From NCBI GenBank assembly GCA_963770895.1, contig CAVYRF010000002.1:480001-544000 (forward strand): a DNA stretch of 64,000 nt, written 5' to 3'. How positions within the stretch are numbered: position 1 is the first letter of the stretch; each line of letters opens with the position of its first letter. A program made the position numbers and the translations under genes. Under the pieces are notes generated by a model. That model made no database searches. It was not told the DNA's origin and worked only from the letters and a program-made list of their open reading frames with translations. Origin of the DNA: an uncultured Acidobacteriota bacterium (GTDB taxonomy: Bacteria > Acidobacteriota > Thermoanaerobaculia > Multivoradales > UBA5704). Shown here one piece after another: positions 11,310-28,234 of this stretch.

Positions 11310-12515
11310 TCAACCCTGGGCGGCCCCCAAGGGGTCTTCCAGTTCGCCGCGGTGGCGCAGCAGGCGGTCGGTCAGGGCTCGCAGGGGAAGCAGGAGGTCG
11401 TTCTGGGGCGCTATCAGCGGCCACTCAGAGCGCCGGCGGCGGAACAGGGCGTCTGCGCCGGGAAAAGTCGTCTGAACCGGCGCGGCAGGAGCGCCGGGAG
11501 CGGCGGCCTGATTGCGGCAGTAGGCTGCCTGGTGATCGCGGGCGATCGTGGCCGCCTCCCGCAGACTGCCTTCCGCCAACAGCCGGGAGCAGACACCTTC
11601 CAGCAACAGCTCGGCCTCAGCGTGCCGGCCTGCCGCCATCGCGATGAGGCCTTCGGTCCAGGCGCGCCGCAATGCTTCGTGCGGTGAGGCCGGCAGGGTA
11701 TAGAGACCTCGCGCGCGCTCCAGCCACACCGTGCCCGAGCCTTCGGCCAGCCGAATCTCGCACTCGGCACAGGCCAGGGCCACCCGCACCGTCAGGGAAG
11801 GGGCCAGCGCCGGCTCCAACAGGTTCCAGGTGCGTTGCAGGGCCTGCCGCGCCAGCATCCAGTCACCGGCAGCGAGCTGGAGGAAGCCGGCCTCGGCCAG
11901 GCACGCCGCGGCGGAACCGCCCAGCGCCAACTGCGCGAAGACGCGGGCAGCTCTCTGGAAATGCTCCGCGGCGTCGCGCCAGGAGCCCGCCTGCTGGTCC
12001 ACCTGTGCGAAGCCGGCCGTCGCCAGCCCCAGCTCCTCGGACGGAGGATCGTAGACGACAAGATCGAGCATCTCTGAAAACGCCTGGCGCGCCCCGGCAA
12101 CGTCTGCGCGGTGCAGGCGGGCTTTGCCGACCAGCCAGTGAGCCAGCGCCCCCGCCTTGCAAGCCCGCCCATCGCCAGCGCCTACCAGGCTGCCAGCGAG
12201 CACCGCCGCCAGCTCCGCCCGTTCCTCCACCATCGAGGCGTCGGCGGATCGCAGAAGCGCATCCTCCGCCTGCAGGTTCAGCAGCATCACCAGCGTCACC
12301 CGGTGGAAGCGAGGCTGCCTGCGAGCGAGCGGCAATCGCTTGTCCCGCACCATCGCCAGCAGCTGGTCCGCCAGGGCGGCATCCAGCAGCGCACCGGCGA
12401 GCAGAGGCGACGCAGGTTCCTCGCCGGGCCGGTTGTCTGCGGCAGAGAACCCTGGATCGAGCGGCTCGCCCGGAGCCGGCTCGGCGCCCCGTCGGCCGCT
12501 GCCATTGCGCACCAT
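11310..12515 (-). CDS. TPR-like alpha-helical hypothetical protein, paralog of 18698..19993
   Basis: Shares PRFHR, AGALAHWL.GKA.LHR.D, PSEELGLA.AG.AQV, AACLAE.GFLQ, VRVALACAECE, LTDRLLR..GELE with the second copy. Confidence 0.75.
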   Translation of the reverse strand: MVRNGSGRRGAEPAPGEPLDPGFSAADNRPGEEPASPLLAGALLDAALADQLLAMVRDKRLPLARRQPRFHRVTLVMLLNLQAEDALLRSADASMVEERAELAAVLAGSLVGAGDGRACKAGALAHWLVGKARLHRADVAGARQAFSEMLDLVVYDPPSEELGLATAGFAQVDQQAGSWRDAAEHFQRAARVFAQLALGGSAAACLAEAGFLQLAAGDWMLARQALQRTWNLLEPALAPSLTVRVALACAECEIRLAEGSGTVWLERARGLYTLPASPHEALRRAWTEGLIAMAAGRHAEAELLLEGVCSRLLAEGSLREAATIARDHQAAYCRNQAAAPGAPAAPVQTTFPGADALFRRRRSEWPLIAPQNDLLLPLRALTDRLLRHRGELEDPLGAAQG

Positions 12516-13487: not shown

Positions 13488-14882
13488 TTAGGCCGCGCGC
13501 CGCAGAAGATCGAGAGCCCGCTGCGCCTCGCTGTGCAGTTCCAATGCCTCGAAAATGGCCATGGATTCATGCGCCAGAGCCTTTACCTCTGCCGACTTGC
13601 CCTGCGTCGCATGAATTTCCGCGAGTTCCAGGGTCACGAGTGCGGCAATGTAGACATTGTGGCTTGCGGCAAAGTCCCGACGCACCTTTTCGAAACCGGT
13701 CACGGCCTCGGCCACGCGGCCCTGGCCGGCCGCCACGCGGCTCTCTAACCAGCTTACTCGCAGGAGTTCCAGCCGCTTGCCGAATCCCTCAGCCATGGAG
13801 CGGATCTCAGAAAGCAGAAGCTCCGCCTCGTGATAACGCTTCAGCTGACATAGATTGACGGCCAGGTTCTTCCGAACGATGTAGTACTTCCATGGCTCTT
13901 GCTCAAAACCGATGTGTCCGGCCGCCTGCTGCAACCACTGGATTGCCCCCTGCAAGTCACCCATTTGTTCCAGGGTCCTGGATTTCCCGAGGAGCAGCGA
14001 TGGCATCTCGCCCCAGCGGTCGATCTTGAGCGCCTCGTCGAGAAGAGCCAGCGCTTCATCGAGCCGACGCTGCGCTCGCCGCAGCGACGCCTTCAGGTGG
14101 AGGACGCGGGCCTCATTGAGATACCCCGGGTCGGCCGCGGCACCCTCCTGCCAGAGCTCCATGCCGTACGCGAATGCCTTTTCGGCTGCCGCGAGATCCC
14201 GACCGCCCACGCGCAGAGCGTTTGCTACATGACATCGTGCATATCCCTCAAGCCGAGAGCGCCACCCGGCACCGACCGGCAGCCGACTGGCGATCAATAC
14301 AGCCAGATCGCCGAGACTTTCAGCCCTCTCGGAGCTATCGCCAGCGGCATCCAGGCTCTTGTCGCAGATCAGCACGCAGAGGCCAGGGCTCTGGAGGTCG
14401 TGAAGGTGGCACACCAACTCCCGCCGCACGGTGTCTGAGTAGCGGTCGATCCGCATCCAAAGCTCCGGCGCTGACCGGCGGCTCTCGATGAAGTCAACGG
14501 GTTCATAGGAGTGCCGGCTTGCCGTCAAATCACGCAGCACAAGGGAAGCAAGGTCAACCCCAAGATCCGCAGCGACGGTTGCGGCTGGAAGGCCTTGTAC
14601 CTGCAAGGTGGTTTGCGCCACAGGTAGGCGTGCCCCTTCGCTGCGAAGCCGGCCCAGAAGCGCAACCACTTCATCGATGGCGCTCAGGGGCATGCCGAGC
14701 GCTGAAGTAATCCGTGCCAGGGTCCCCGGGTTTGGCTCGCCCTTGCCTTGCTCCAGCCGCTTGATCGTATCGACGTGAATTCCCGCCGCACGGGCCAGGG
14801 CCTTCTGCTCCTGGCCTCGCGCCAGACGCAAGAAGCTCAGCGCCAGACCTCTATCGCTTCGATGCCCCGTCTTCGCCCTCAT
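13488..14882 (-). CDS. XRE-family HTH + TPR-like regulator (single HTH; C-terminus truncated)
   Basis: LRLARGQEQKALARAAGIHVDTIKRLEQGKGEP is an HTH_3; C-terminal helical domain homologous to three neighbours; stops about 30 aa early. Confidence 0.8.
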   Translation of the reverse strand: MRAKTGHRSDRGLALSFLRLARGQEQKALARAAGIHVDTIKRLEQGKGEPNPGTLARITSALGMPLSAIDEVVALLGRLRSEGARLPVAQTTLQVQGLPAATVAADLGVDLASLVLRDLTASRHSYEPVDFIESRRSAPELWMRIDRYSDTVRRELVCHLHDLQSPGLCVLICDKSLDAAGDSSERAESLGDLAVLIASRLPVGAGWRSRLEGYARCHVANALRVGGRDLAAAEKAFAYGMELWQEGAAADPGYLNEARVLHLKASLRRAQRRLDEALALLDEALKIDRWGEMPSLLLGKSRTLEQMGDLQGAIQWLQQAAGHIGFEQEPWKYYIVRKNLAVNLCQLKRYHEAELLLSEIRSMAEGFGKRLELLRVSWLESRVAAGQGRVAEAVTGFEKVRRDFAASHNVYIAALVTLELAEIHATQGKSAEVKALAHESMAIFEALELHSEAQRALDLLRRAA

Positions 14883-15037
14883 TTGCGCGCACCCTCATTC
14901 ATTAAGATGGGGCAGGATGACCTCCCCTAGGGAGGCACAGCCTTGTATTTTGTGACCGCCGTCCACATCCAGGATCTTCGAGGCGCCCCGCGGCCAGGCA
15001 GGCCGCGTTGACGTCGCTTCCGAGAAAGGAGCATCCG

Positions 15038-15448
15038 ATGAAGCCGTTCTCCCGTCTTCTGATGGTGGGCATTCTCTTCACGATCTTAGCTGCGCCTGGG
15101 GCGCTTGCGGCCCCTCCATCGCCGCACAGAGTGTCCGCCGGCTCGCCGATTGGTCTCGCCGACGCGTGGGACAGCGTGGTTGCGCGCATGCTGGACTGGC
15201 TGGGCGAGCGGCCCGCAAATCACTCCGGCAGACCGTCCGCTTCGCGGGCGATGTCGCCTGATGAAGGTTGTACAACGGATCCGAATGGACTGTGTGCAGA
15301 TGCAGGGCCGAGAAAGCGGGTGCCATCGAACCTTTCGGCCGGGCCTGGCGGCAAGGCTCTTGGCTTGAGATTCCAATCCAGAATGCCCGTCGAGTCGCCA
15401 GCTGACACTGGTTGCTCGACCGATCCCAACGGGCAGTGCCTTCACTAA
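15038..15448 (+). CDS. Small secreted precursor-like protein with two DxGCxTDPNGxC cores
   Basis: RBS AAAGGAG; signal peptide MKPFSRLLMVGILFTILAAPGALA; cores DEGCTTDPNGLC (15260-15295) and DTGCSTDPNGQC (15404-15439). Confidence 0.75.
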   Translation: MKPFSRLLMVGILFTILAAPGALAAPPSPHRVSAGSPIGLADAWDSVVARMLDWLGERPANHSGRPSASRAMSPDEGCTTDPNGLCADAGPRKRVPSNLSAGPGGKALGLRFQSRMPVESPADTGCSTDPNGQCLH

Positions 15449-15517
15449 GGAGAGGTGGCGCTGGTAATGCCGGACAGGAGCGCTGATAGCGTTCCGATCG
15501 GACCCCAATGCCTCCTC

Positions 15518-17440
15518 TCATGCGGGCGTGCCCTCAAAGGGAAGCTGCGGATTGTGACGGGCCCGGTACAGATACTGGATGAGGCCGCTGAGGAATGAGC
15601 CCGTCGCTCGTTCTTCAGCGGCCGCCCGCCGGAACAGGTCCAGTGCCCGCTGCGCTTCGGCGTGCACCTGCTGCGCGGCGAAAATCGGCGCCGATTTTTC
15701 GGCCAGCACCTTTACCTCGGCCGTGCGCCCCAGGGCAGCATGGATCTGCGCCAGCTCCAGAGTCACCAGGGCGGCATCGTACGCATCCTTGTGACGGGCG
15801 AACTGCTGACGTGCTCGTGCCAGAAGTGAGGCCGCTTCTTTTGTTCGGCCAAGGCCGAATGCGATTTTGCCTTCGAGCCAGATGACCCGAATCTGCTCCA
15901 AGGGCTTGCCAAACTGCATCGCCAATGCATGCACGTTGGGAAGCATCAACGCGGCCTGGCCATACTGTCCGAGATGGCAGAGGGTGGCCGCCAGATTCTT
16001 CTGCACGATGTAGAACTTCCAAGGCTCTTGCTGGGGATCGATACGGGACGAGACCTCCCGCAACACCCTCTCAGCCAGGCTGAAGTCACCCGACTCCTCG
16101 AGCGCTTTAGCCTTGCTGAGGAGCAATGCCGTCGTCTCACCCCAGCGGTCGACCACCAGTGCCTTATTCAACAGCGCCAGAGCGTCCGGAATACGACGTT
16201 GGGCTCGACGCAGTGACGTCTCCAGGTGGAGCACCCGCGCCTCGTTGAGCAGCCCCTGGTCGGCGCCTGCACCGGACCGCCACAGCTGAAGGGCGGCATG
16301 AAATGACTTTTCGGCGGCAACCAGGTCGTCGCCGGCCACACGCATTGCATTGGCGATGTGGCATCGAGCGTAGCCTTCCAGTTGGCAGCGGAATGCCGCA
16401 TCCCCGGGCACTCGCGCCGCGATGAGCAGAGCGAGATCGGCAAGGAGGGCCGCTTCCCTTGCGCTGCCACCCGCGGCCTCCAGGCTCTTGTCGCAGATCA
16501 ACTCGCACAGACCGACGGTGTGGAACTCCGCCCCTTCGCAGACCAAAGCTCGCTGGGCATCCTCCGAGACACGCTGCAGGCACTCCCACTGCAAGGGCGC
16601 CTGCCAGCGGGAAAGCTGAACTCGTGCTACCCACACCAGCCCCTCAAGGCATACCGCCATCCAATCCTCGGCCCGGCGCGCCTGGGCAGCCACCACTTGC
16701 TCGATTGCCTCTCGCGTCGGATCGTCACTGATCGCCATGTGGGATTCCAGCGCCGACGCGGCCAACTGAACGAAACCGAGGGTCCGATCCAGCATCCCTG
16801 GCGGGAATCCCATCCCCTCGACAATGCGGTTGAGCGTCAGCATGCGGGGCACGGTCTTGCCAAGCTCGTAGCTCGAAATCGAGGTTTTGCGAGCACCGAC
16901 GCTCTCGGCAAGATCCTGCTGTCCAGATCTGCGAATCACTCGCAAGATGACCAGCACCACATCCACCGGGAGAGACCCGCGGTCGGACCTGGCCTTTTCA
17001 GGCCGGGAAGACCCGATCCCCGCATCCGTCGCCGGCGTAGCGCCGTCCGCACCTGAACCGTCCGCCTGCTCCCGCACATCGCGAAGGAGGCGCATCAGCA
17101 ACTGGCGAGCGAGCCCTTCCATCCATCCACCGGCTTCGACCGTCAGCCGGTCGAGCCACGCCGAAAGCGCGGGCTGGCCTGCCCCCACGTAAAGCTCTCT
17201 TTCGACCCGCGCCCAGCGCACAAAGGAAACGGTTCGATCGAGAAGCCTGGGTGGATAGCCCATGGCGGCAACCAACAGCTGCCGCGTTTCGAGCGAAGGC
17301 GTCTTCGAACCGCGCTCGAATTTCGCGATCGAGGTGACTTGCAAACCCGCCTGCTGCGCCAGCTCTGAGCGAGTCCAGCGGCGCACCACCCGCAGGATGG
17401 TGAGCGCCTCTGCCCACGGTAGCGCCGCGTCCTCCGCCAT
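15518..17440 (-). CDS. Tandem XRE-HTH + TPR-like regulator
   Basis: Two HTH_3-like segments (LRVVRRWTRSELAQQAGLQVTSIAKFERG; LRVIRRSGQQDLAESVGARKTSISSYELG) plus the conserved helical domain; ATG at 17440 after GGAG. Confidence 0.82.
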   Translation of the reverse strand: MAEDAALPWAEALTILRVVRRWTRSELAQQAGLQVTSIAKFERGSKTPSLETRQLLVAAMGYPPRLLDRTVSFVRWARVERELYVGAGQPALSAWLDRLTVEAGGWMEGLARQLLMRLLRDVREQADGSGADGATPATDAGIGSSRPEKARSDRGSLPVDVVLVILRVIRRSGQQDLAESVGARKTSISSYELGKTVPRMLTLNRIVEGMGFPPGMLDRTLGFVQLAASALESHMAISDDPTREAIEQVVAAQARRAEDWMAVCLEGLVWVARVQLSRWQAPLQWECLQRVSEDAQRALVCEGAEFHTVGLCELICDKSLEAAGGSAREAALLADLALLIAARVPGDAAFRCQLEGYARCHIANAMRVAGDDLVAAEKSFHAALQLWRSGAGADQGLLNEARVLHLETSLRRAQRRIPDALALLNKALVVDRWGETTALLLSKAKALEESGDFSLAERVLREVSSRIDPQQEPWKFYIVQKNLAATLCHLGQYGQAALMLPNVHALAMQFGKPLEQIRVIWLEGKIAFGLGRTKEAASLLARARQQFARHKDAYDAALVTLELAQIHAALGRTAEVKVLAEKSAPIFAAQQVHAEAQRALDLFRRAAAEERATGSFLSGLIQYLYRARHNPQLPFEGTPA

Positions 17441-17625
17441 TCCATGCTCCAACCAAAGTGCCTGCCCTGAGAAAATCCGGTCCCAGCCCGCGGCCGTCCG
17501 CTGCAGAGGAGGACCTTCCAAGGATCTCTAACGTCCAGCACTGTAGAGCTTAAACGATCCCGCCATGATGGCGCTACAACCGAGGCGGTGAGGGCTTTGG
17601 ACCGGTAGCGCAGGCACCTCAACAA

Positions 17626-17892
17626 TTGCCCCGATCGCGACGCGCCTGGCGGCGCGTGCGCGATCGGGCCGGGGGGGGCGGGCGAGGCGTTTTGCCCCGC
17701 TTAGCGCTTCTGGCCGCGGCGGACGCGTTCGAGGAGGCGGGTGGAGTCTTTCATGCACTCCATCATTTTTTCTTGCAGGCCTTCGCCGCGGCCCAGGCCT
17801 CGGGCGTGGGCCAGGACGCTGCGGGCGCGGTCTTCTTCTCCGGAAGCTAGCAGGGCCATGCCGAGGTGGGTGAGGGTGTTGGCGGAGGGGCC
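17626..17892. repeat. Direct repeat copy 1 (267 bp): duplicate of the TPR gene 3' end and its terminator
   Basis: Read base by base as identical to 25418-25685 except G8 versus G9 in a homopolymer. Confidence 0.95.
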
Positions 17893-18268
17893 GACACCGC
17901 ACCTGGGCGACGGCGCCCTGGTGCAGCACCTCGCCCAGGCTGCGCAGCATGCGCAGGACCGAGGCGTGGACGGCCTGCTGCTCCTCCGCGGTCAGGTCAT
18001 CCGCCGGGGCCTCCGCATCCCCGCCGGCCATGGAGAGCAGGAGAGCCACCATCGACGTCGTGAGCTCGCCGACTCCATCCGCCGTGCGCATTGCCGCCAC
18101 CAGTGCGTCGAAGCGCTCTTGGGTCAGGCGGATCTTGCCGTTTTCGTATTGGGACAGCTGACTGCTGCCGGTTCCGCTGGCCTTCGCCAGAGCGGTTTGC
18201 GTCCATCCGTTGATCGCCCGCACGATGGTCAGCGATAGCCCCAGGGCGGAGGGTTGCGATCGGTTCAA
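17893..18268 (-). pseudogene. Truncated XRE-HTH regulator (N-terminal fragment) interrupted by the repeat
   Basis: LGLSLTIVRAINGWTQTALAKASGTGSSQLSQYENG HTH; after about 125 aa it runs out of frame into repeat copy 1; TTG overlaps the upstream TGA. Confidence 0.75.
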
Positions 18269-18690
18269 ACTACCTTCCCCTCATAGAACTGACTTTCCAG
18301 CAGGGCGTTGGTCACCTCGACGGCTGCCAGCAAGGCGTCGGCCGCCGGCTCCAGGTGATCGCTGATCGCGCCTTCTACGGCGGCACGAAGATCCATCCCG
18401 ACGGTGTACGGCGCGCAGTGCTCCTCGCGCGCCTTGAAGTCATCCGGCAGCGGGATCTGTCCGTACAGCTCGCGCAAACGACCCGACAGTTTCTTGATCT
18501 GCGCTGCGATCAGGCGGAGCTGGCGCTTGCGAACCGACAGCGGGTCTTGCGGCCTGCCCGCTTTGCGAGCGGTCTTCCCGGACCGCACCACCGATGCGGG
18601 TCCCCTGCCCGTCCCGGCGTTCCCGGGCGCGCACGACATCCCGTCGAAGGGTGCTGCGATGCGCAGATCAGCAGACCGCTCGCGCGCCAT
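18265..18690 (-). CDS. Hypothetical helical protein
   Basis: ATG at 18690, 8 bp after the upstream stop; stop overlaps the next start; amphipathic helices (RKRQLRLIAAQIKKLSGRLRELY, DLRAAVEGAISDHLEPAADALLAA). Confidence 0.6.
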   Translation of the reverse strand: MARERSADLRIAAPFDGMSCAPGNAGTGRGPASVVRSGKTARKAGRPQDPLSVRKRQLRLIAAQIKKLSGRLRELYGQIPLPDDFKAREEHCAPYTVGMDLRAAVEGAISDHLEPAADALLAAVEVTNALLESQFYEGKVV

Positions 18691-18697
18691 GTCGGAC

Positions 18698-19993
18698 CTA
18701 CTCCAGCATCTCGGGCGAAGCGCCGCACACAGGCTCGAGCTCACCGTGGTAACGCAGCAGCCGGTCGGTCAGGGTGCGCTGCGGGCACAGCAGGTCCGGG
18801 CGCCCCGGCACCGGCTGGTGCGCGCCCAGACGGTCGATCAAGGTGTTGACGGCCTCGTAGTACGCCCGGCGTCCGCGAGCGTCCAAGGCAACCAGATCGC
18901 GCAGCGCCTGCGCCCAGGGGACCCCAGCGATCGCAAAAGCCTGCTCCAGCCCCGCCGCCAGCGCCTCGCCCTGCAAGGCTAGGCCGCCCTCGACCCGCGC
19001 GGTCAGCAGGTCGCAGCTCACGGTGACCGCTTCGGCCAGGCTCCCCTCGCTCAGCAAGCGTGCGTGCACCGCGCCCAGCTGCGCCAGGGCCTCGGCAAAG
19101 CGCCCCGCCGCGGCGGCGATGTGGCCTTCCGCCCAGGTGCGAGCCACGTCCTCGCACCATGGCGCGGGCAGCGCGTACAGCTGTCGCGCGCGCTCCAACC
19201 ACGGTTCCGCATCCAGACCCACCTCGCCCCCCTGGCGGGCTTCGCACTCGGCGCAGGCCAGCGCCACCCGCACCGCCGTCACCGTCGCCGCTGCCTGATC
19301 TTGCAGAAGGACCCAGGCGCGCTTCAGGTTGCCGCGGGCCGCGGCCAGGTCACCCGACTCCATCTGCAGAAAGCCGATTTCGGCCAGGCACGCGGCCAGC
19401 GGCAGGCGCGCCGCGGCCGCGGCGAAGGCGACGGACGCGCGCTGGAAGTACATGACGGCGCTATCCCACCCGCCGTACGCCTGCGCCACCTGCGCCCAGC
19501 CGGCATGCGCCAGGCCCAGTTCCTCGCTCGGCTGGTGCGGCACCTCCAGATAGCTGTGAATACCGCCCAGCGCCGCCGCGGCGGCCGCAGGATCACCACG
19601 GTGCAGGAGCGCCTTGCCCAGCAGCCAATGGGCCAGGGCACCGGCCCGCCTCACGCGACCGCGGGCGTCCCGCACCACGCGCGCCGCCAGAATCGTCGCC
19701 AGCTCGGCCTCCTGCTCGCCGGCATCGGCGCCGTGCGGTGCCAGCACCGCACTTTCGGCCTCCAGGTTGAACAAAGTCAGCAGCTCGGCGCGGTGGAAAC
19801 GTGGGTCTTGTTGGGCCGTTTGTAGCCGCACGGCCCGCGGCATGGCCATCAGCTCCCGCGCCAGGCAGACAGACGCATAGGCGCGTTCCAAAGGCCGGTC
19901 AAGCCAGCCCGAGGCGCCGGGGCCATCTGGCACGGCCGGCGTCAGGCGGAGCGGGGGATTTTCGCCGCGGCGCAAGCTGCCTTCTGGCTCCAT
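18698..19993 (-). CDS. TPR-like alpha-helical hypothetical protein, paralog of 11310..12515
   Basis: Shared motifs with the first copy; start uncertain (ATG 19993 chosen; ORF extends to 20113). Confidence 0.75.
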   Translation of the reverse strand: MEPEGSLRRGENPPLRLTPAVPDGPGASGWLDRPLERAYASVCLARELMAMPRAVRLQTAQQDPRFHRAELLTLFNLEAESAVLAPHGADAGEQEAELATILAARVVRDARGRVRRAGALAHWLLGKALLHRGDPAAAAAALGGIHSYLEVPHQPSEELGLAHAGWAQVAQAYGGWDSAVMYFQRASVAFAAAAARLPLAACLAEIGFLQMESGDLAAARGNLKRAWVLLQDQAAATVTAVRVALACAECEARQGGEVGLDAEPWLERARQLYALPAPWCEDVARTWAEGHIAAAAGRFAEALAQLGAVHARLLSEGSLAEAVTVSCDLLTARVEGGLALQGEALAAGLEQAFAIAGVPWAQALRDLVALDARGRRAYYEAVNTLIDRLGAHQPVPGRPDLLCPQRTLTDRLLRYHGELEPVCGASPEMLE

Positions 19994-20316
19994 GATCGAT
20001 GTCACCCTCCCAAGGATCGGTTCTTCTCGTACCTGCATGTCGGCGTTGCCAGGTGCACGGCTCAGTCCTCGGAACGGGAAATACCCAGCGGCCTTGCCGG
20101 CCTGGCCGAGCACAGGTCACCAGCGGCACGGTTGGCCTGATCGAGCTTCGCTCCGCGCAATCCGGCGGTACCGCGTTACCGGCCACCTCCAGGTCCAGCC
20201 ACCCGATCCATATGCAGACGCTACCCTGCGCTCGACACCTAACCCCCTGGATCTGCCCTGGCGCTGCATCCGGCGTCATTGCCAGGAATCGTGAAATCTC
20301 TTAAGATGGGTATTCG

Positions 20317-20342
20317 TTGACACTTCGTTGCCATGCAACGAA
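20317..20342 (+). promoter_or_regulatory. Candidate -35 (TTGACA) with adjacent palindromic operator
   Basis: TTGACA at 20317-20322 followed by perfect inverted repeat TTCGTTGC-cat-GCAACGAA (20324-20342) in a divergent intergenic region. Confidence 0.45.
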
Positions 20343-20427
20343 ACAGATGCAGCTGGGACGCCGCGCATCGGTCGCGGAGGCGCTGCGCGCCACGCACCCG
20401 GGCATCCACCGATCTTCTGGAGGCGAC

Positions 20428-22347
20428 ATGGCGAAGGACCCGAGGCCGGCCTGGGCCAAGGCCCTCACCACCCTGCGGCTCATCCGTCGTTGGAACCGAA
20501 GAAAGCTGGCGCAGGCGGCAGGGTTGTCGGCCAGCGCGATCACCCGCTACGAAAAAGGCGATCGCGGTACGGTCGAAGACGCGATACGCCTCGGCTTTGC
20601 CATGGGATTCCCCCACCACGTCTGGCAGCGCGTATTGGAATTCGTGGTCGCGGTCGAGGGCATGCACGCAGGTCAGCCGTCGACGCCGGATCAAGGCGCC
20701 AACAGCTCGATTGAAGCGATTGCCAGGACCGCTGCAAAGTGGACAGAGGCGCTGATCAAGTCGGCACTGACCACGACTCTGGTCGAGTCGCGCCGGCAGC
20801 TGAACGTCGCTTCCGTGCCTGCAAAGCGCCAGCCGGCGCGCTCCGCGCTCGCGGGGCGAGCATCGCACGCCAAGCGACCTGCCGCCGCGCCCAGCGCCCC
20901 GCCGGCCACCGGCGAGGCCATCGTCATCCTCCGCATGATGCGTAGCTGGGAACGGCAGGATCTCGCCGACGCAATCGGCCGGCCCGACGAAACCGTCGCC
21001 AACTACGAGTACGGCAGGACTGTGCCCAATCCCCAGGTGCTGCGCGCCCTGCTTGCAGTCATGGACTATCCCCTCGCGGCACTCGAGGCCGCGATCGAGC
21101 TCGTTCATATGGCGCGGGAAGCACACAGGCTCTCGCGCGACGTCGGTCGCGACAGGCAGTCGGCCGAAATCGCCACGATCGCGGCGCAAAAAGCCCGGAG
21201 GGTCGCAGCGTTTACCCGCGGAGAGATGGAAGAGTTGGCGGTCGTGGCGCGGGTCCTGGTGTCCCGCGACGGAGCCGAAAGCCTGTGGGCATCGCTTTCT
21301 GCTTGTTCCGAAAGGAGCCAGCACGACTTGGTGCGCCAGCTGGTTCTGTACCAGACGCCGGGATTTTGCGAGCTGCTCTGCGACGAGAGCCTGAAGGTGG
21401 CGGGGGACAGTGCGCGGCGAGCCAAGCACTTGGCCGAACTGGCGGTCCTGGCCGCCGAGCTGGCCACTGGCAGCGACGCCTTTCGCGCCCGCCTACGCGG
21501 CTTCGCCGGCGCTCACCACGCCAATGCCCTGCGGGTCGCCGGACATCACCTGCCGGCGGCGGGCGCGGCGTTGGATCGCGCCCTGGCGGCGTGGAATGCG
21601 GGTGCCGGGTCCGATGCAGGGATGCTCAATGCAGCGCGGGTATGCGGCCTTCTCGCGTCGATGCGACGCGGACAGCGCCTCCTGCCGGCAGCCATCCAGG
21701 CGCTCGACGAGGGGCTCAGGGTCGACCGCTGGGGCGAGACGCCGGTGCTGCGGCTCGCCAAGGCAAGGGTGCTGATTGAGATGGGAGACTTCGCAGCATC
21801 CATCGATCAGCTGCGGCGGGCGGAGAGCGATTTAGACGGCGAGGCCGAGCCACGACGGTTCTACGTGATCGAGAACTTGCAGGTGCTCAACCTGTGTCAT
21901 CTCGGCCAGTTCGCAGCCGCCGAGCGGAAACTGGCCAGTCTGCGCCGGCTGGCGCGGAGCAATCGGCTCGACCTGCTGCGGGTTGACTGGCTGGCGGGAA
22001 AGGTGGCCGCTGGGCTGAGGCAAGAAACAGAGGCGCTCGCCTTGCTTCTGCAGGCGCGTGCCGGTTTCGTCGAGGTGGGCAACGCCTATGACGCTGCCCT
22101 GGTGACCCTGGAGCTTGCTGAAGTGCAGTCCTCGCTAGGCCACACCGCCGAAGTCAAAGCGCTTGCCCGCAAGTCGGCGCCCATCTTTGCGGACCAGCGG
22201 GTGCACCGGGAAGCGCAGCGGGCGCTCGCATTGTTTCGCGCCGCGGCGGAAGAGGAGAGGGTTACCAGCGACCTGTTGCGTCACCTGATCGTCTATCTCT
22301 GCAAGGCCCGTCACGATCCATCCCTCCGCTTCGCCGCAGAGGGTTGA
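20428..22347 (+). CDS. Tandem XRE-HTH + TPR-like regulator
   Basis: RBS GGAGG then ATG 20428; two HTHs (LRLIRRWNRRKLAQAAGLSASAITRYEKG; LRMMRSWERQDLADAIGRPDETVANYEYG); conserved C-domain ending ARHDPSLRF. Confidence 0.82.
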   Translation: MAKDPRPAWAKALTTLRLIRRWNRRKLAQAAGLSASAITRYEKGDRGTVEDAIRLGFAMGFPHHVWQRVLEFVVAVEGMHAGQPSTPDQGANSSIEAIARTAAKWTEALIKSALTTTLVESRRQLNVASVPAKRQPARSALAGRASHAKRPAAAPSAPPATGEAIVILRMMRSWERQDLADAIGRPDETVANYEYGRTVPNPQVLRALLAVMDYPLAALEAAIELVHMAREAHRLSRDVGRDRQSAEIATIAAQKARRVAAFTRGEMEELAVVARVLVSRDGAESLWASLSACSERSQHDLVRQLVLYQTPGFCELLCDESLKVAGDSARRAKHLAELAVLAAELATGSDAFRARLRGFAGAHHANALRVAGHHLPAAGAALDRALAAWNAGAGSDAGMLNAARVCGLLASMRRGQRLLPAAIQALDEGLRVDRWGETPVLRLAKARVLIEMGDFAASIDQLRRAESDLDGEAEPRRFYVIENLQVLNLCHLGQFAAAERKLASLRRLARSNRLDLLRVDWLAGKVAAGLRQETEALALLLQARAGFVEVGNAYDAALVTLELAEVQSSLGHTAEVKALARKSAPIFADQRVHREAQRALALFRAAAEEERVTSDLLRHLIVYLCKARHDPSLRFAAEG

Positions 22348-22513
22348 ACCATCCACCCCGCCAGGGCTCGGACCGCAACCATGAAACCGCAACCGGTCCT
22401 GGGGGCAAGCTCCTGCGCGAGCTTGTCTGCGACAGGCCTGCTCGGCGGCAGGCTCTCGATCCCGAGCGATTCGACCGCGATCGTGACGGAGAGCCCACCG
22501 TTCGCCGGCGTGC

Positions 22514-22816
22514 CTAGCCGCCGTAGGGGTCGGCTCCCGGTCCTTCGTCGGACTGCGAGGACGGTGGAGGCGCACCGGCCGGTTGCGCCAAGGCGTTCTC
22601 GAGACTCGACGTCGCATGTCCAGACGGGACTCTTGCCGATCCAAGCGTCGGTAGCCGATTCGACAGCCAACCCCAGAGAACCGCCAAGGGTTGCCAGAGT
22701 GAAGAGGAGGCACCACCTGGAGCGTGGGCCGCAACCGGTGAGGCAAAGGCCGCAAGAGGAGGCAGAACGATCAAAAGGACCAGGCCAAGGGCGATGACGC
22801 GGGGGACACGGTGCAT
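22514..22816 (-). CDS. Small secreted precursor-like protein ending DEGPGADPYGG
   Basis: RBS AAGGAGG; signal peptide MHRVPRVIALGLVLLIVLPPLAAFA; Trp-rich SLWQPLAVLWGWL; C-terminal DxGxxxDPxG. Confidence 0.75.
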   Translation of the reverse strand: MHRVPRVIALGLVLLIVLPPLAAFASPVAAHAPGGASSSLWQPLAVLWGWLSNRLPTLGSARVPSGHATSSLENALAQPAGAPPPSSQSDEGPGADPYGG

Positions 22817-23001
22817 ACAGATCCTCCTTGAGCGGGGCGACTGCGAACGCGGCCGGCATGGACCGCGACGGTGCCCCCGAGAGCTACAGTGCCCAGGGTG
22901 TCAAGAATACTGCTAAAAAGTGCGTTTCCAGGGCCTGAAATCTACCCTGTATTGACGCCGCTTTGCCAGGTGCCGTGAGGAGCCTCACTATGCCAGGAGT
23001 G

Positions 23002-24867
23002 ATGGGACGCAGCGACGAGCTGGGATTGGTGCTGATCCTCTTGCGCCACCTCAAGGGCTGGTCGCAGAAGGAGCTGGTGGCTGCGTCGGGAGTCAGCTTC
23101 GGCGGTCTCCGCGGTCTGGAGCAGGGGCAGAGGCGCCAGCCGACGCTGAAGACTCTGGCGCCGCTTGCGATGGCCCTCGGCGTGGACCTGGCAGCCATTG
23201 CCGAGGCGGCAGCCGTGATCCATGGCCTGGGTGGCGCGACCCCACCAGGTGCAGCAGCCGCGGCAACCAGCGGCGCTGAACGGGCCGATGACCTGGTGAT
23301 CACGGTCGAGCCGGACGTTTCTCAGAGCGTCACCGCTGCTCTCTTGGCTGCCGCGTCGGTCGCTTCGCCTGGCCCCGGCCTGCCGCGCAGCGCAGCGCAT
23401 CAGCAGCCGGTGGCGGAAGGGAGCCAGGATCTGGGCCTGGCGGTGAAGCTCCTGCGGTTGCGACGCGGTATGGCGGTGGTGGACCTCGCTCGAATCACGG
23501 GGATGACCGTCGCGACACTGCAAGCGCTCGAGAATGCCAGGCTACGGACACCGCCGGCGAAGCTGTCCGCCGTCCTATCGGCTCTTGGCGTCGACCAAGC
23601 GACGCTGGCAACGACCCTTTCCTTGATCTGCAAGCTCCGGCGCCTGGTGGTCGCGACTGCTTCGTGGGCGGAACAGCCAGCGCTCCCAATGCAAAGCTTG
23701 GCGGAGCCCACCACCTTGCGAGACCAGCTTGCCGCCCTGCTGCTTGACGAGGCCACTGCGGTGCCCGAGCAAGCGGCTTGTGAGGACGAAGCCCGCCAGC
23801 GGGCCACGGCGCTTTGGTCCCTGCTTGCACGTTGCCCACAGACAGCTCTACGGGCGCTGGTACGTCAAGCGCCCGAGCTGCAAAGCGTCGCAGCCTGTGA
23901 AATGTTCTGCCAGCAAAGCCTGGATGTGGCGGGTGACAGCGCGCGCCGGGCAAGGCAGCGGGCCGAGCTGGCGGTCATGGCGGCCGAGCGGGCTCGCGGC
24001 AGCGCAGGCCTTCGCGCGCGCCTTGCAGGCTTCGCCGGCGTTCACCTCGCCAATGCCCTGCGCGTCGCCGGCACCAGCGTACCCACGGCCGGTGTGGCGT
24101 TCGATCGCGCTCTGGCAACCTGGAATGCGGGCGAAGGCGCCGATGGCGGGCGATTGAATGCAGCGCGAGTGCGCGGCCTGGAAGCTTCGATGCGGCGGGC
24201 GCAGCGCCGGCTCACCGAGGCGCTGGCGGCGGTAAACGAAGGTCTCCGCATCGACCGCTGGGGTGAGGCACCGGCCCTGCGCCTCGCCAAGGCCAGGGTG
24301 CTCATCGAGATGGGTGAGTTCGCACCATCGATCGACCAGCTACAGCAGGCCGCCGCTGCAATCGACGGCGATCGCGAGCCGCGCATGCTCTATGTCGTCG
24401 AGAACCTGCACATCCTCAACCTGTGCCACCTGGGGCAGTTCGCGATAGCCGCCCAGCGCCTGCCCAAGCTCCGGCTGCTGGCACAGAGCAATCGCCTCGA
24501 CCTTTTGCTTGCAGAGTGGCTAGCCGGCAAGGTAGCGGCCGGGCTGGGCCGTGTGGCAGAGGCGCTCGCCCTGCTGCTCCAAGTGCGCGCCGATTTCCTG
24601 GAGCGTCACAACGTCTACGACGCGGCCCTGGTCACGCTGGAGATAGCCGAGGTCCACGCATCGCTGGGCCACACGGCAGATGTTAAGGAACTGGCCCGCG
24701 CATCGGCGCCCATCTTCGTGGACCAGCGGGTGCACCGAGAAGCGCGGCGCGGCTTGGCGCTCTTCCGCCAGGCAGCCGAAGACGAAAAGGCGACCGGCGA
24801 GTTGCTCCACCGGCTGCTCGTCTATCTGCGCAGTGCCCGCCAGGATCCCCACCTGCGCTTCGCCTGA
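23002..24867 (+). CDS. Tandem XRE-HTH + TPR-like regulator
   Basis: AGGAG before ATG 23002; HTHs LRHLKGWSQKELVAASGVSFGGLRGLEQG and LRLRRGMAVVDLARITGMTVATLQALEN; conserved C-domain ending ARQDPHLRF. Confidence 0.82.
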   Translation: MGRSDELGLVLILLRHLKGWSQKELVAASGVSFGGLRGLEQGQRRQPTLKTLAPLAMALGVDLAAIAEAAAVIHGLGGATPPGAAAAATSGAERADDLVITVEPDVSQSVTAALLAAASVASPGPGLPRSAAHQQPVAEGSQDLGLAVKLLRLRRGMAVVDLARITGMTVATLQALENARLRTPPAKLSAVLSALGVDQATLATTLSLICKLRRLVVATASWAEQPALPMQSLAEPTTLRDQLAALLLDEATAVPEQAACEDEARQRATALWSLLARCPQTALRALVRQAPELQSVAACEMFCQQSLDVAGDSARRARQRAELAVMAAERARGSAGLRARLAGFAGVHLANALRVAGTSVPTAGVAFDRALATWNAGEGADGGRLNAARVRGLEASMRRAQRRLTEALAAVNEGLRIDRWGEAPALRLAKARVLIEMGEFAPSIDQLQQAAAAIDGDREPRMLYVVENLHILNLCHLGQFAIAAQRLPKLRLLAQSNRLDLLLAEWLAGKVAAGLGRVAEALALLLQVRADFLERHNVYDAALVTLEIAEVHASLGHTADVKELARASAPIFVDQRVHREARRGLALFRQAAEDEKATGELLHRLLVYLRSARQDPHLRFA

Positions 24868-25100
24868 TTCCTATGAGCACGAAGCCCGTATCATGGACGA
24901 GCAAGCCGAGAGACGCCGGACGGGATTCGATCACTGATCTAACACTGCGACGGGCGGCGCTTGGCAGCGGCGAGCCGCACCGTGCGGGCGTTCGTTTTTT
25001 CAGTCTCGACCGCCGGCTTGGCGCCGGTGCGTTCGGCGGCGCCCGCCCCGAGGCCAATCCCGACCGGGCGCGGTTGGCGCGCCAGAAAGGGCACTCGTCC

Positions 25101-25643
25101 ATGCATAGTTCCGTCGCGCTTCGCATCGCCAAGGTCACGGCCGCGCTAGCCCTGATGGTACCCCTGGCCCTGACGGCCAGGACCCCTTGCAGGTTCGCGG
25201 TCTCTCATCAGCAAATGGTCGCGGGCACCAGCATTCTGGACCAGGCATATCGCTGGTTCGTCTCGGTCCTGCCCTGGAGCAGCCCCGGCACCGAGCCCCG
25301 GCCTCTTCAGCGCGCCCCAGCTCGTCCCGTGAAGCCGCTCACCACGTGTACGATCGATCCAAGCGGCGGTTGCGTCAGCAGCAATATCCCGGCATCTATC
25401 CAAAGCGCCAAAAACAGTTGCCCCGATCGCGACGCGCCTGGCGGCGCGTGCGCGATCGGGCCGGGGGGGGGCGGGCGAGGCGTTTTGCCCCGCTTAGCGC
25501 TTCTGGCCGCGGCGGACGCGTTCGAGGAGGCGGGTGGAGTCTTTCATGCACTCCATCATTTTTTCTTGCAGGCCTTCGCCGCGGCCCAGGCCTCGGGCGT
25601 GGGCCAGGACGCTGCGGGCGCGGTCTTCTTCTCCGGAAGCTAG
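25101..25643 (+). CDS. Small secreted precursor-like protein with TTCTIDPSGGC core (3' end uncertain)
   Basis: AGAAAGGG before ATG; hydrophobic N-terminus, ILDQAYRWFVSVLPW, core at 25341-25373; as assembled it reads antisense into the TPR gene. Confidence 0.55.
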   Translation: MHSSVALRIAKVTAALALMVPLALTARTPCRFAVSHQQMVAGTSILDQAYRWFVSVLPWSSPGTEPRPLQRAPARPVKPLTTCTIDPSGGCVSSNIPASIQSAKNSCPDRDAPGGACAIGPGGGGRGVLPRLALLAAADAFEEAGGVFHALHHFFLQAFAAAQASGVGQDAAGAVFFSGS

Positions 25644-25685
25644 CAGGGCCATGCCGAGGTGGGTGAGGGTGTTGGCGGAGGGGCC
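25418..25685. repeat. Direct repeat copy 2 (268 bp), native 3' end of the TPR gene plus terminator
   Basis: Matches 17626-17892. Confidence 0.95.
25422..25460 (-). terminator. Hairpin terminator of the hbd-TPR unit (duplicated at 17630-17668)
   Basis: CCCGATCGCG-ACGCGCC-tggc-GGCGCGT-g-CGCGATCGGG stem; TGTTTTT follows shortly after on the minus strand. Confidence 0.6.
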
Positions 25686-27341
25686 CAGCTCGCTCGACTT
25701 GGAGAGGAAGTCGATGGCTTTGTCGAATTCCTTGCGCTTGTAGTGCACCCAGCCCAGGGCGGCAAGGGGGAACTGGCGGATCTCGTCGGGCGATAGCTCT
25801 ACCGAACGGCGGGCGAAGCCCAGGGCTTCGTCCAGGTCCTCTTCCATCTCTGCCAGGTTGTAGGCCATCTCGTAGTAGGCGATGGTCTTGCTGAAGTTGG
25901 AGCCGGATTCGTCCACCATGCGCTGGCCGATGCGGTTGCCTTCGCGGTATTTGCCCTGGCTGCGCATGGCCTCGATGAGGGCGGCGCAGGCGGTCGCCTT
26001 GAGCATCTCGCCGGGATTGAGGTCCAGGACCTTGCGGGTGACGGCCTCGATCTCCTGGCTGCGGTTGAGGTGCAGGCAGAGCAGGGCGTACGACATCAAA
26101 AGCGTCGGGTTTTCGGGATCCAGGGCCAGGGCCCGGCGGTAGCAGGAGTGGGCCTGCTTGAGGTTTTCGCGCTGCAGGAAGTCTTCGCCCTTGGCCAGCC
26201 ACCCCGCCGCTTCGCCGTCGACGCCGGGCAGCGGGCTGCCGCCGGCCTGACCCGAAAGGTAGTGCACCAGGTCCTGGTACTGGAGCTTCTTGGGGTTGAG
26301 GCGCTGCGCCTGGCGGAACGATTCCAGGGCCTTGCGGTTCCAATGGCGGTCCAGGTAGGCGAGGCCGAGAAGGTGGTGGGCTTCTTCGAAGGCCGGGTCG
26401 TGGCGCACCGCTTCCTGCAGGTGGCGGACGGCGGCGGTCAGCTTGCCCATCTCGTAGCAGCAGCTGCCCAGCAGGAAGAGCGCCTGCGGCACCGCGTCCA
26501 CCTGCACGGCGCGCTCCAGGAAGAGCACCGCCTTGGCGAGGTTGCCCTGGCCGGCGTAGACCGCGCCCAGGCTGAACTGCGGCAGGAAGCTGTCGGGGTA
26601 GATCGCCACCGCACGCTTGAGGTAGTCCTCGGCGCGTCCGTGGTCGCCGCGCTCGTAGTAGATGACGCCGCTGTAGACCAGGCCTTCGTAATGGTCGTGC
26701 TTGACCTCCAGCACGCGCGAAAAGCAGGCCAGGGCGGGCTCCGAGTTGCCTTCGTTGAAGTGGGTCTCACCCAGGAAGTAGGCCAGCTCGTAGTTGTCGC
26801 GGTCCAGCTTGTAGGCCGCGTCCAGCGCCGCCACCGCACGCTCGATGTCGAAGGCGAACAGGGCGTATTCGGCGTCTTCCAGATGCTGCAGGAAGAGCTT
26901 GCGCTTGTCGCCGTGATGCAGGGCGGCGATGCGCTCCTTGATCGACAGGAAGCGCTCGCGCTTTTCGAGCGCCAGCAGCTGGTAGTCCATCTTGGACTCC
27001 CAGAGGTCGCTCCATTCATCGCCGGCGATCAGCCGCTTCTGCTCCAGCAGCTCGCGCAGGGCGGTCATGCCCGTCTGGTTGATGAGGATGTTCTTTTCCT
27101 GCTTGTGCAGCGCTCCCAGCAGCTGGCGCACCGTTTCGGCGGTGCGCTTGACCGCCTCTTCCAGGATGGAGATGCGCTCCAGCAGGTGCTCGTCGAAGGA
27201 GAAGTTCTCCTCCGGCGTGCCCTCTTCGTAGGGCTCTTCGTCTTCGTTGGCGCCGCCCGACAGCACCAGCAGCTTCTGGTGGCAGCGGACGCAGAATTCC
27301 TGGTCGTCCTGGTTGAGGGCGCCGCAGACCTGGCAGTACAT
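25494..27341 (-). CDS. TPR repeat protein with N-terminal zinc ribbon and coiled coil
   Basis: MYCQVCGALN...FCVRC; many canonical TPRs (YFLGETHF, FSLGAVY, HLLGLAYL, AALGWVHY). Confidence 0.88.
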   Translation of the reverse strand: MYCQVCGALNQDDQEFCVRCHQKLLVLSGGANEDEEPYEEGTPEENFSFDEHLLERISILEEAVKRTAETVRQLLGALHKQEKNILINQTGMTALRELLEQKRLIAGDEWSDLWESKMDYQLLALEKRERFLSIKERIAALHHGDKRKLFLQHLEDAEYALFAFDIERAVAALDAAYKLDRDNYELAYFLGETHFNEGNSEPALACFSRVLEVKHDHYEGLVYSGVIYYERGDHGRAEDYLKRAVAIYPDSFLPQFSLGAVYAGQGNLAKAVLFLERAVQVDAVPQALFLLGSCCYEMGKLTAAVRHLQEAVRHDPAFEEAHHLLGLAYLDRHWNRKALESFRQAQRLNPKKLQYQDLVHYLSGQAGGSPLPGVDGEAAGWLAKGEDFLQRENLKQAHSCYRRALALDPENPTLLMSYALLCLHLNRSQEIEAVTRKVLDLNPGEMLKATACAALIEAMRSQGKYREGNRIGQRMVDESGSNFSKTIAYYEMAYNLAEMEEDLDEALGFARRSVELSPDEIRQFPLAALGWVHYKRKEFDKAIDFLSKSSELGPSANTLTHLGMALLASGEEDRARSVLAHARGLGRGEGLQEKMMECMKDSTRLLERVRRGQKR

Positions 27342-27343
27342 CC

Positions 27344-28234
27344 TCACTTGGCCGGGGCCTCCTGGTAGTCGTAAAAGCCGCGTCCCGACTTGCGGCCGAG
27401 GTGGCCGGCGTCGACCATCTTGACCAGCAGCGGGCACGGACGGTACTTGGGATCGCCGAAGCCCTCCTGCAGCACGCGCAGGATGTCCAGGCAGACGTCC
27501 AGCCCGATCAGGTCGGCGAGCGCCAGCGGTCCCATGGGATGGTTCATCCCAAGCTTCATAACCTGATCGATGGCCGCCGCCTTCCCCACTCCCTCGTAGA
27601 GGCAGAAGATCGCCTCGTTGATCATCGGCATCAGCACCCGGTTGGAGACGAACCCCGGCGCGTCGTAGACCTCGACCGGCGTCTTGCCCATCTGCCGCGC
27701 CGCCGCCTCTACCGTGTCGTAGGTGTGCTGGTCGGTCGCCAGGCCGCGGATGATCTCCACCAGCTGCATGACCGGCACCGGGTTCATGAAGTGCATGCCG
27801 ATGACCTTGCCCGGCCGCCGCGTGGCGGCAGCCAGCCGGGTGATCGAGATCGAGCTGGTATTGGTGCCCAGGATCGCGTGCTCCGGGCAGACCCGGTCGA
27901 GCTCGGCAAGCACGCGCTGCTTGACCTCGAGCTTTTCGACCACCGCTTCGATCGCCAGGTCGACCTGGGCCAGCGCCGCCAGGTCGCCGCCGGTCGAGAC
28001 CCGCGCCAGCGCCCGGTCGCGGTCTTCGGCCGCCAGCTTCCCCTTGTCCACCAGCCGGGCCAGCCCCTTGCCGATCTGGGCCACGCCGCGCGCCAGCGCC
28101 GCCGGCGCCGCATCCACCAGGGTCACCTGGTAGCCCGCTTGCGCCGCCACCTGGGCGATGCCATGCCCCATGGTGCCGGCCCCCACCACCCCGATCCGCA
28201 GCCCGCTCGCCTCACCTGCCGCCGTCTCGCTCAT
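27344..28234 (-). CDS. hbd: 3-hydroxybutyryl-CoA dehydrogenase
   Basis: GVVGAGTMGHGIA, IEAVVE, NTSSISIT, GMHFMNPVP, PGFVSNR, HPMGPLALADLIGLD. Confidence 0.93.
   Translation of the reverse strand: MSETAAGEASGLRIGVVGAGTMGHGIAQVAAQAGYQVTLVDAAPAALARGVAQIGKGLARLVDKGKLAAEDRDRALARVSTGGDLAALAQVDLAIEAVVEKLEVKQRVLAELDRVCPEHAILGTNTSSISITRLAAATRRPGKVIGMHFMNPVPVMQLVEIIRGLATDQHTYDTVEAAARQMGKTPVEVYDAPGFVSNRVLMPMINEAIFCLYEGVGKAAAIDQVMKLGMNHPMGPLALADLIGLDVCLDILRVLQEGFGDPKYRPCPLLVKMVDAGHLGRKSGRGFYDYQEAPAK

Follow-up and report, generated by a model that had tools for sequence, protein, structure and literature searches.

Precursor genes and regulators at the locus

The genome dealt with here, from a member of the Thermoanaerobaculia in the diderm phylum Acidobacteriota, comprises 8.16 Mb in three contigs with a GC content of 70.7%. 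We analysed a 64-kb stretch of this genome (contig C2, positions 480001-544000; hereafter the window, to which coordinates refer unless another locus is named), where three small open reading frames (ORFs), precursors A and B and the precursor-like ORF C, lie beside four genes for predicted DNA-binding regulators, R1-R4. The stretch was present in five DNA-type sequencing rows from two studies, soil metagenomes included, and no RNA row was listed. The GC content between 12 and 26 kb of the window is 0.64-0.67, overall 4-7 points under the genome mean. The GC content at third codon positions (GC3) is 0.71-0.78 in the regulator genes (13488-24867) and 0.88-0.96 in neighbouring housekeeping genes.

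A first-pass annotation had proposed that the three ORFs are small secreted precursors, each made up of a signal peptide, a Trp-rich amphipathic helix, a linker and a core of the form DxG(C)xxDPxG(xC). All three ORFs proved to be real in the sense that each has a signal-like start, a Trp-containing segment and the cores assigned to it. The term signal-like refers here to our own heuristic, namely a positive n-region plus a 12-residue window with a Kyte-Doolittle mean of at least 2.0, and not to SignalP.

Precursor A (15038-15448, + strand; 136 aa) runs from an ATG at 15038 to a stop at 15446-15448. Its signal-like N-terminus, MKPFSRLLMVGILFTILAAPGALA (15038-15109), ends in ALA and is followed by the Trp segment LADAWDSVVARMLDWLG (15155-15205), a first core DEGCTTDPNGLC (15260-15295) and a second core DTGCSTDPNGQC (15404-15439), which lies two residues short of the stop. 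The start was placed at this ATG rather than at the upstream TTG (15008) because AAAGGAG occurs six bases ahead of the former. Against the family profile described below, precursor A scored E 2.5e-20, A itself being a seed member. Precursor B (22514-22816, - strand; 100 aa; ATG at 22816) comprises a signal-like part (22742-22816), the Trp segment SLWQPLAVLWGWLSNRL (22652-22702) and the Cys-free C-terminal core DEGPGADPYGG (22517-22549). We found relatives of B as three paralogs in the same genome, two orthologue-like genes in a genome of the same genus and three database proteins. The only name found for relatives was "hypothetical protein", as the first-pass annotation had expected of automated gene calling.

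ORF C (25101-25643, + strand; ATG at 25101) encodes at least 91 aa up to its core, with a signal-like part (25101-25178), the Trp segment ILDQAYRWFVSVLPWS (25233-25280) and the core LTTCTIDPSGGC (25338-25373), and continues into an abnormal 89-aa tail. Position 25373 had initially been taken for the end of C; it closes the core, and the frame stays open to 25643, crossing a REP-like palindrome and then running antisense to the 3' end of the gene at 25494-27437. We regard the 3' end of C as abnormal because the tail behind the last core has a median of four residues in the family; the gene may have lost its stop or decayed, or the assembly may be at fault. ORF C probably belongs to the same lineage-specific family of predicted exported precursors as A and B. 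A GC3 frame analysis did not tell the coding frame of A and B apart from other frames, and a simple sigma-70 scan found no promoter ahead of A, B or C.

The REP-like element is a GC-rich, palindromic sequence of 58 nt (25413-25470) with approximately 52 genomic blastn matches on contigs C1 and C2. The gene at 25494-27437 (- strand) encodes a 647-aa protein with a zinc-ribbon at its N-terminus and numerous canonical TPRs (TPR_2, 4.4e-39), and is not a member of the regulator family. The palindrome and the 3' end of this gene make up a 272-nt segment (25413-25685) that is duplicated, with 99% identity and a 1-nt difference in a G run, at 17621-17892.

Each precursor adjoins genes for proteins that combine XRE-type HTH domains with a TPR or TPR-like sensor domain, and the precursor-regulator intergenic gaps in the window measure 69-233 bp. 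R1 (13488-14882, - strand; 464 aa), divergent from A, has one XRE-type HTH and a TPR sensor domain (Pfam HTH_3, 4.4e-9; TPR_12, 30.8 bits against a cut-off of 30.1; TPR_2, 27.7 against 27). R2 (15518-17521, - strand; 667 aa), convergent with A, has two XRE HTHs (HTH_3 in two stretches, 6.8e-13) and a TPR-like sensor domain, and shares 46% identity with R1 over 469 aa. The double-HTH type with a sensor domain is also seen in R3 (20317-22347, + strand; 676 aa), which is convergent with B, and in R4 (22963-24867, + strand; 634 aa; HTH_3 in two stretches, 2.3e-17), which is divergent from B and precedes C, both genes being on the + strand.

A conserved leader element upstream of the precursors

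Many precursors are preceded, approximately 25-30 nt upstream of the ATG, by a GC-rich hairpin/palindrome centred on CGCGGCC-AT..C-GGCCGCG. Upstream of A (14973-15037, + strand) this element reads CGCGGCC-AGGCA-GGCCGCG and is followed by the Shine-Dalgarno sequence AAAGGAG (15025-15031), while upstream of B (22817-22882, - strand) the hairpin/palindrome is followed by AAGGAGG. A covariance model built from 16 leaders, those of A (42 bits, E 6.3e-5) and B (38.3 bits, E 3e-4) among the seeds, also recovered the leader of C (25034-25098, + strand; 35.2 bits, E 0.001), which was outside the seed. The model had 38 matches in the 244 kb of the window and related loci combined; in the window itself there were only three, exactly upstream of A, B and C. 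The element was also observed upstream of precursors in loci L020-L071.

In the alignment fitted to the covariance model, from which the pair counts come, 73.5% of the cells of the helix pair, compared with 62.7% in shuffles, none of 500 shuffles reaching the observed value; registers slid along the alignment gave at most 58.7%. Two outer pairs switch between CG and GC, in 10-11 sequences each. The case for a hairpin rests on these aligned pair counts, because the single-sequence folding energies of 12 leaders were mostly unremarkable (z of -0.4 to -1.9, with one at +0.35 and one at -3.97). The leader element may function as a hairpin in the RNA or, in the DNA, as a 19-bp operator to which HTH dimers bind. 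A match to the Rfam speF leader over the start of C (18.8 bits against a gathering score of 37 bits) was below threshold and was taken as chance.

Motif enrichment and selective constraint

The pattern C..DP.G.{0,4}C occurs 32 times in six-frame translation of the 8.16-Mb genome. Nineteen of these occurrences fall within 1.5 kb of a regulator paralog, a zone that covers 1.9% of the genome and in which 0.6 would be expected, while three scrambled control motifs had 1 of 12, 0 of 13 and 0 of 13 occurrences there. The motif is therefore not merely as common in shadow frames as in the precursors, a point on which the initial proposal had been left to stand or fall. Frame counts gave a similar picture: a signal-like start is present in 1,490 of the genome's 40,728 open frames of 60 aa or more, and requiring G...[DE]P.G as well as a Trp at residues 25-85 reduced them to 12, with 10 of the 12 located near regulators.

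The pattern of conservation was assessed in an alignment of nine sequences of the B subfamily (B, its three paralogs, the two same-genus genes and the three database proteins). Mean pairwise identity was 0.59 for the signal, 0.73 for the Trp segment, 0.76 for the core and 0.35 for the linker. Conserved stretches of the alignment are the signal, WEPLxxLWGWLS in the Trp segment and QTD[ED]GxxxDPYGG at the C-terminus, and the linker varies, with indels. The layout anticipated by the first-pass annotation, with a conserved leader-like segment, a variable linker and a C-terminal core conserved in preference to the linker, is thus borne out in this subfamily. Among the six members with DNA available, dN/dS ranged from 0.33 to 0.73. 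Shine-Dalgarno sites resembling GAAAGGAG lie 6-9 nt ahead of the ATG in nearly all of the 50 precursors examined. Judged from their Shine-Dalgarno sites, dN/dS and the wide spread described below, we consider that the precursors are real translated genes.

Size, spread and anatomy of the precursor family

The three precursors recognised at first represent an undercount. We found approximately 22 precursors of the same build in the genome, as signal-like ORFs within the 1.5-kb flanks of regulator loci, 19 such ORFs being retained in the collection by an ad hoc filter. Several carry three or four tandem modules, for instance KPQNxC..DP.G..C, and others end in a linear ...DP.G(G). A profile made from 33 precursors (A3) matched 35 of 41 related genomes, several other families of the order among them, and all 24 genomes of the same family, with 5-50 matches each; the genomes searched included those that had supplied its seed sequences. 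In a phylum-wide sample, again with seed-supplying genomes among those searched, at least 3 of 401 genomes had a match (E <= 1e-6), and each of the three belongs to the same family; the figure is a lower bound because 11 candidates were scored per genome. In a library of 1.84 billion cluster representatives, 2,512 matched the profile at E <= 1e-3 and 459 at E <= 1e-10, and all of these were small. The precursors had no match in Pfam, NCBIfam or PHROGs.

The anatomy of the family was examined in the top 150 representatives of the library matches. A signal-like start was present in 145 of them, and A-x-A occurred at residues 16-40 in 118. RR was found in the signal n-region of 82, for which reason export may proceed by Sec or Tat; a looser twin-arginine pattern was detected in 45, and A, B and C fall outside that pattern. 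A Trp at residues 30-80 was found in 148, and the segment around it varies between subfamilies. All 150 have [DE]P.G past residue 30, 144 of them in two to five copies, and the tail behind the last copy is no longer than 6 aa in 128. The amphipathic helix that had been suggested for the Trp segment found no statistical support: the best 14-aa hydrophobic moment had a median z of 0.78 against shuffles, with z > 1.64 in 11 of 53 members.

The 414 cores of these 150 independent representatives yield a family consensus, [DKE]-x-G-C-x-[IL]-D-P-x-G-x-C, that comes close to the motif read at first from the three ORFs. It occurs in one to nine tandem copies, and Cys-free variants such as that of B exist. 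Position by position, the modules read [D50 K22 E17]-[N E A T]-G97-C95-x-[I58 L21]-D99-P100-x-G100-x-C83, the occupancies being 97% for G at -4, 95% for C at -3, 99% for D, 100% for P, 100% for G at +3 and 83% for C at +5. The spacers are variable and rich in P, A, T, S and G, and neighbouring cores are spaced at 11-68 residues (median 23). Residue -2, which follows the first Cys, is common to 57% of core pairs inside a precursor as opposed to 10% between precursors. Precursor length ranges from 87 to 192 aa in a set of 53 members, from which open-ended ORFs and four signal-like ORFs of related loci plainly outside the family had been left out. In more distant families of the order the modules are Cys-free, and a single protein can contain as many as nine HGPR[IV]DPNG copies. 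The top copy number was observed in a 192-aa protein of another family of the same order (locus L062, 1480-2058, + strand; genome G037), which has nine tandem Cys-free (E/D)HGPR[IV]DPNG modules.

Regulators across genomes and the cassette as a unit

Searches with R1-R4 (tblastn) located 46 regulator-like loci in the genome, approximately 25 of which have a precursor-like ORF within 1.5 kb. In the opposite direction, when the best precursor match of each of 30 genomes was taken, a regulator homologue was found in the 1.5-kb flanks at 29 of the 30 loci. Regulators occur in 38 of 41 related genomes, with 12-35 matches in each of the 24 same-family genomes. TPR_12 was detected in 55 of 56 regulator homologues (best E 6.5e-14) and HTH_3 in 51, and neither a signal peptide nor a clear transmembrane segment was found in the regulators. 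A scan of viral contigs with the regulator alignment gave no relatives.

A sensor-domain tree was built from those of the 46 regulator loci that span 1,000 nt or more, 32 in all. In this tree the regulators cluster by the core type of the adjoining precursor, and R4, for instance, joins other DPYGG-type regulators. Among KPQ-type cassettes, regulators divergent from the precursor make up one clade and those convergent with it another, and the two clades are sisters, indicating that the three-gene unit was copied as a whole. One clade is simpler, with one regulator and a precursor on the same strand.

The regulators of the window are accompanied by related genes. A truncated HTH regulator of a third, precursor-less subtype (X; 17528-18268, - strand) has had its C-terminal part replaced by the 272-nt duplicate of 25413-25685. 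Y (18698-20113, - strand; 471 aa) lacks an HTH and is remotely akin to the regulator sensor domain (hhalign probability 60%, E 8.8e-5 over 317 columns); an HTH-less paralog lies at 11310-12515 (- strand) and has weak TPR_12 and TPR_MalT matches. Pfam offered no family for Y. There are eight genomic copies of Y-type proteins, approximately 400-470 aa long, five of them within approximately 2 kb of a regulator-like match, and by analogy they resemble TPR-only receptors. A different sort of DNA-binding TPR protein, with Trans_reg_C (OmpR/winged-helix) and TPRs, is encoded at 31571-33097 (- strand; 508 aa).

A predicted peptide signal and its cognate receptors

We propose, with roughly even credence, that these loci are RRNPP-like cassettes of a peptide signal and its receptor in a diderm phylum, in which A, B and probably C would be exported pre-pro-peptides served by dedicated cytoplasmic XRE-HTH plus TPR regulators. 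A study on the detection of RRNPP systems gives a five-point signature, namely a propeptide of 10-100 aa, Sec secretion, a receptor of 250-500 aa, TPRs and adjacency of the two genes (PMC10075063). Measured against the signature as worded there, the R1-A pair agrees with it for the larger part: TPRs are detectable by HMM in the receptor, and the receptor gene directly adjoins the propeptide gene. As to size, B has 100 aa, A 136 aa and C at least 91 aa to its core, and R1 (464 aa) falls within the receptor range, while R2 (667 aa), R3 (676 aa) and R4 (634 aa) are above it. Because anatomy and context thus agree with most of the signature, a peptide signal with a cognate receptor appears to be the most likely function. 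Tandem C-terminal cores, variable P/A/T/S spacers and the conservation of core and Trp segment relative to the linker are likewise features typical of predicted released peptides. Of the two possibilities that the first-pass annotation had left side by side, a processed pheromone or a ribosomally synthesised and post-translationally modified peptide (RiPP), the pheromone type is favoured by the XRE-HTH plus TPR regulators flanking the precursors, and the RiPP type is disfavoured by cassettes that contain no modifying enzyme.

The proposed cassette might work as follows. The N-terminal signal peptide would carry the precursor over the inner membrane, with the single Trp-containing segment serving as a pro or sorting region. 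Removal of the Pro/Ala/Thr/Ser-rich spacers would then free one to nine copies of the module of approximately 12 residues, whose two Cys could form a 9-residue disulfide ring round the DPxG turn; Cys-free modules, such as DEGPGADPYGG of B, would remain linear. The freed peptides may build up outside the cell and, in the simplest case, be taken up through an oligopeptide permease before the TPR domains of the neighbouring regulators sense them. Such import is feasible because the genome encodes two OppA-type peptide-binding proteins. The regulators might then act on the conserved leader palindrome/hairpin, as a feedback site, and on other targets. The x positions of the module, chiefly the residue after the first Cys, would confer identity on each of the 20-50 cassettes per genome. 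Going one step further, and somewhat more tentatively, we speculate that dozens of peptide channels operate in parallel in each cell of an order of soil Acidobacteriota (Thermoanaerobaculia), built on multi-copy precursors of disulfide-cyclised DPxG nonapeptide rings with their own HTH-TPR receptor pairs, and that this system arose independently of RRNPP systems or diverged from them beyond recognition.

Several points weigh against the signalling interpretation. No homology to RRNPP receptors was detected at the sequence level: a sensor-domain profile search of the PDB gave nothing meaningful at E <= 10, the full-length profile gave HTH matches only, PlcR being reached through its HTH alone (E 0.57), and no RRNPP-specific family of Pfam, NCBIfam or PHROGs was matched. 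In a diderm the peptides would have to cross the outer membrane twice, and a disulfide ring would face the reducing cytoplasm. The near-invariance of G-C...DP.G...C across paralogs leaves only about three variable positions for specificity, and it could instead stem from a processing enzyme common to all paralogs, or from a role in structure or metal binding. The precursors, at 87-192 aa, are longer than the 10-100 aa of the signature, and R2-R4 exceed its receptor range owing to their second HTH. The co-clustering of regulators with core types follows from cassette duplication and is no proof of binding, and shared descent of recent tandem copies by itself is expected to make cores similar within a precursor.

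Alternative explanations

The precursors might instead be secreted end products, either peptides that serve as antimicrobials or in competition, or repeat proteins that stay intact outside the cell and whose D-x-G-C-x-I-D-P-x-G-x-C modules bind a metal (e.g., Ca2+), in which case the HTH-TPR proteins would be local transcription factors answering another cue. A near-invariant set of G, C, D, P, G and C fits a structural or metal loop, or a shared target, better than it fits many orthogonal signals, and cassettes that are lower in GC and GC3 than housekeeping genes, much expanded and variable are of a kind often seen at competition loci. Nevertheless, no gene for immunity, transport or peptide modification is present in the cassettes, where regulators are the only flanking genes. 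The presence of one or two dedicated TPR regulators for each small gene, in a unit duplicated many times, is hard to explain if the cue is unrelated, and a copy number of 1-9 together with unstructured P/A/T/S spacers suits released peptides over a folded protein. We thus consider end products unlikely, albeit worth keeping in mind.

By analogy with ComR and XIP, the sensed signal could be the Trp-rich hydrophobic segment, the DPxG modules acting as carrier, protease decoy or sorting element. ComR senses Trp-containing XIP peptides, and Rgg- and ComR-type receptors typically bind hydrophobic peptides. The segment is about as conserved as the core within the B subfamily (0.73 and 0.76), differs between subfamilies and is present in 148 of the 150 representatives, all of which would suit a signal. 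On the other hand, there is one such segment per precursor, whereas the cores are amplified, and it sits near the N-terminus of the pro-peptide, unlike known RRNPP signals, which mostly derive from the C-terminal part of the propeptide. As this assignment would in addition leave the invariant, repeated C-terminal modules without a role, we regard it as distinctly improbable.

Still less probable, in our view, is that the precursors are RiPP substrates, with the Trp segment as the leader for an enzyme encoded elsewhere and the DPxG cores as sites of modification (Asp/Asn-derived isoAsp or aspartimide, or crosslinks). The leader/core layout with multi-core precursors does recall some RiPP classes, and DP-N-G and D-G sites are chemically reactive. 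No enzyme gene was found, however, in the cassettes of the window or in approximately 50 other cassettes inspected, where regulators alone flank the precursors; the precursors bear signal-like export sequences, which are unusual for RiPPs modified in the cytoplasm, and they matched no RiPP-precursor family of NCBIfam or Pfam.

That the three frames are open by chance, the DNA being GC-rich, and are not genes is scarcely credible and is in practice refuted for A and B: GC3 carries no coding signal for these two and the read-through tail of C is implausible, but the family profile is found in 24 of 24 related genomes and 2,512 library representatives, and Shine-Dalgarno sites, dN/dS below 1, region-specific conservation and motif enrichment all argue against it, while C may have undergone a frameshift or decay.

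Implications

If the peptide-signal interpretation is correct, encoded peptide quorum sensing with cytoplasmic receptors would extend to a diderm phylum, with a new pheromone chemotype. The cassettes would also provide a ready set of candidate orthogonal peptide/receptor pairs, and the predicted ligands, 9-residue disulfide rings or linear DPYGG peptides, would form a class open to synthesis. There are thousands of these unnamed precursor genes, up to approximately 50 per genome, lying beside their own regulators in an abundant, little-studied soil phylum. Even if the signalling interpretation is wrong, they represent a large conserved family of predicted secreted peptides with a conserved leader element, at present annotated as "hypothetical".

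Comparison with known peptide-signalling systems

For the Bacillota and their phages, it is textbook knowledge that peptides signal through cytoplasmic TPR receptors encoded next to them. In the library searched, no paper joined RRNPP with Acidobacteria, and no relevant work on peptide quorum sensing in Thermoanaerobaculia was found by title or abstract. Motif strings such as IDPNG and DPYGG led only to unrelated papers, on GH32 and other subjects. The RRNPP systems of Bacillota include Rap-Phr, NprR-NprX, PlcR-PapR, PrgX, Rgg-SHP and AimR-AimP, and the RRNPP_detector study covered Firmicutes and viruses and assigned peptide signals to Bacillota and small-molecule signals to Pseudomonadota and Actinomycetota (PMC10075063).

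The cassettes resemble RRNPP systems in that a small gene for a predicted exported propeptide lies beside the gene for a predicted cytoplasmic receptor whose C-terminal part is a TPR domain and whose N-terminal part, like that of most RRNPP members, is an XRE-type HTH. The core lies at the C-terminal end of the propeptide, and many paralogous cassettes occur per genome. In contrast to RRNPP systems, the sensor domain has no detectable sequence homology to theirs, and the host is a diderm acidobacterium. The propeptides are larger (87-192 aa) and carry one to nine tandem cores, usually a Cys pair and an extra conserved Trp segment. There are also often two regulators per propeptide, many of them with a duplicated HTH (634-676 aa).

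Pairs of receptors are known from Streptococcus pyogenes, where two paralogous receptors, the activator and repressor Rgg2 and Rgg3, share one SHP pheromone. The cassettes are similar in having two paralogous HTH-repeat regulators per small peptide gene, one of them divergent from it. They differ in that both regulators flank the precursor and were duplicated along with it, and in that SHPs are short, linear, hydrophobic peptides without Sec signals. Multi-copy precursors are known from a eukaryote, the yeast alpha-factor being cut from its precursor by Kex2-type proteases at dibasic sites. Tandem, near-identical modules split by spacers in one secreted precursor are common to both, whereas no conserved dibasic sites occur in the acidobacterial precursors, the conserved flank being [DKE]-x-G ahead of the first Cys. 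As judged from sequence, therefore, the architecture is RRNPP-like while membership by homology was not found at that level, and the multi-core disulfide-loop precursors and the paired double-HTH regulators would be new features.

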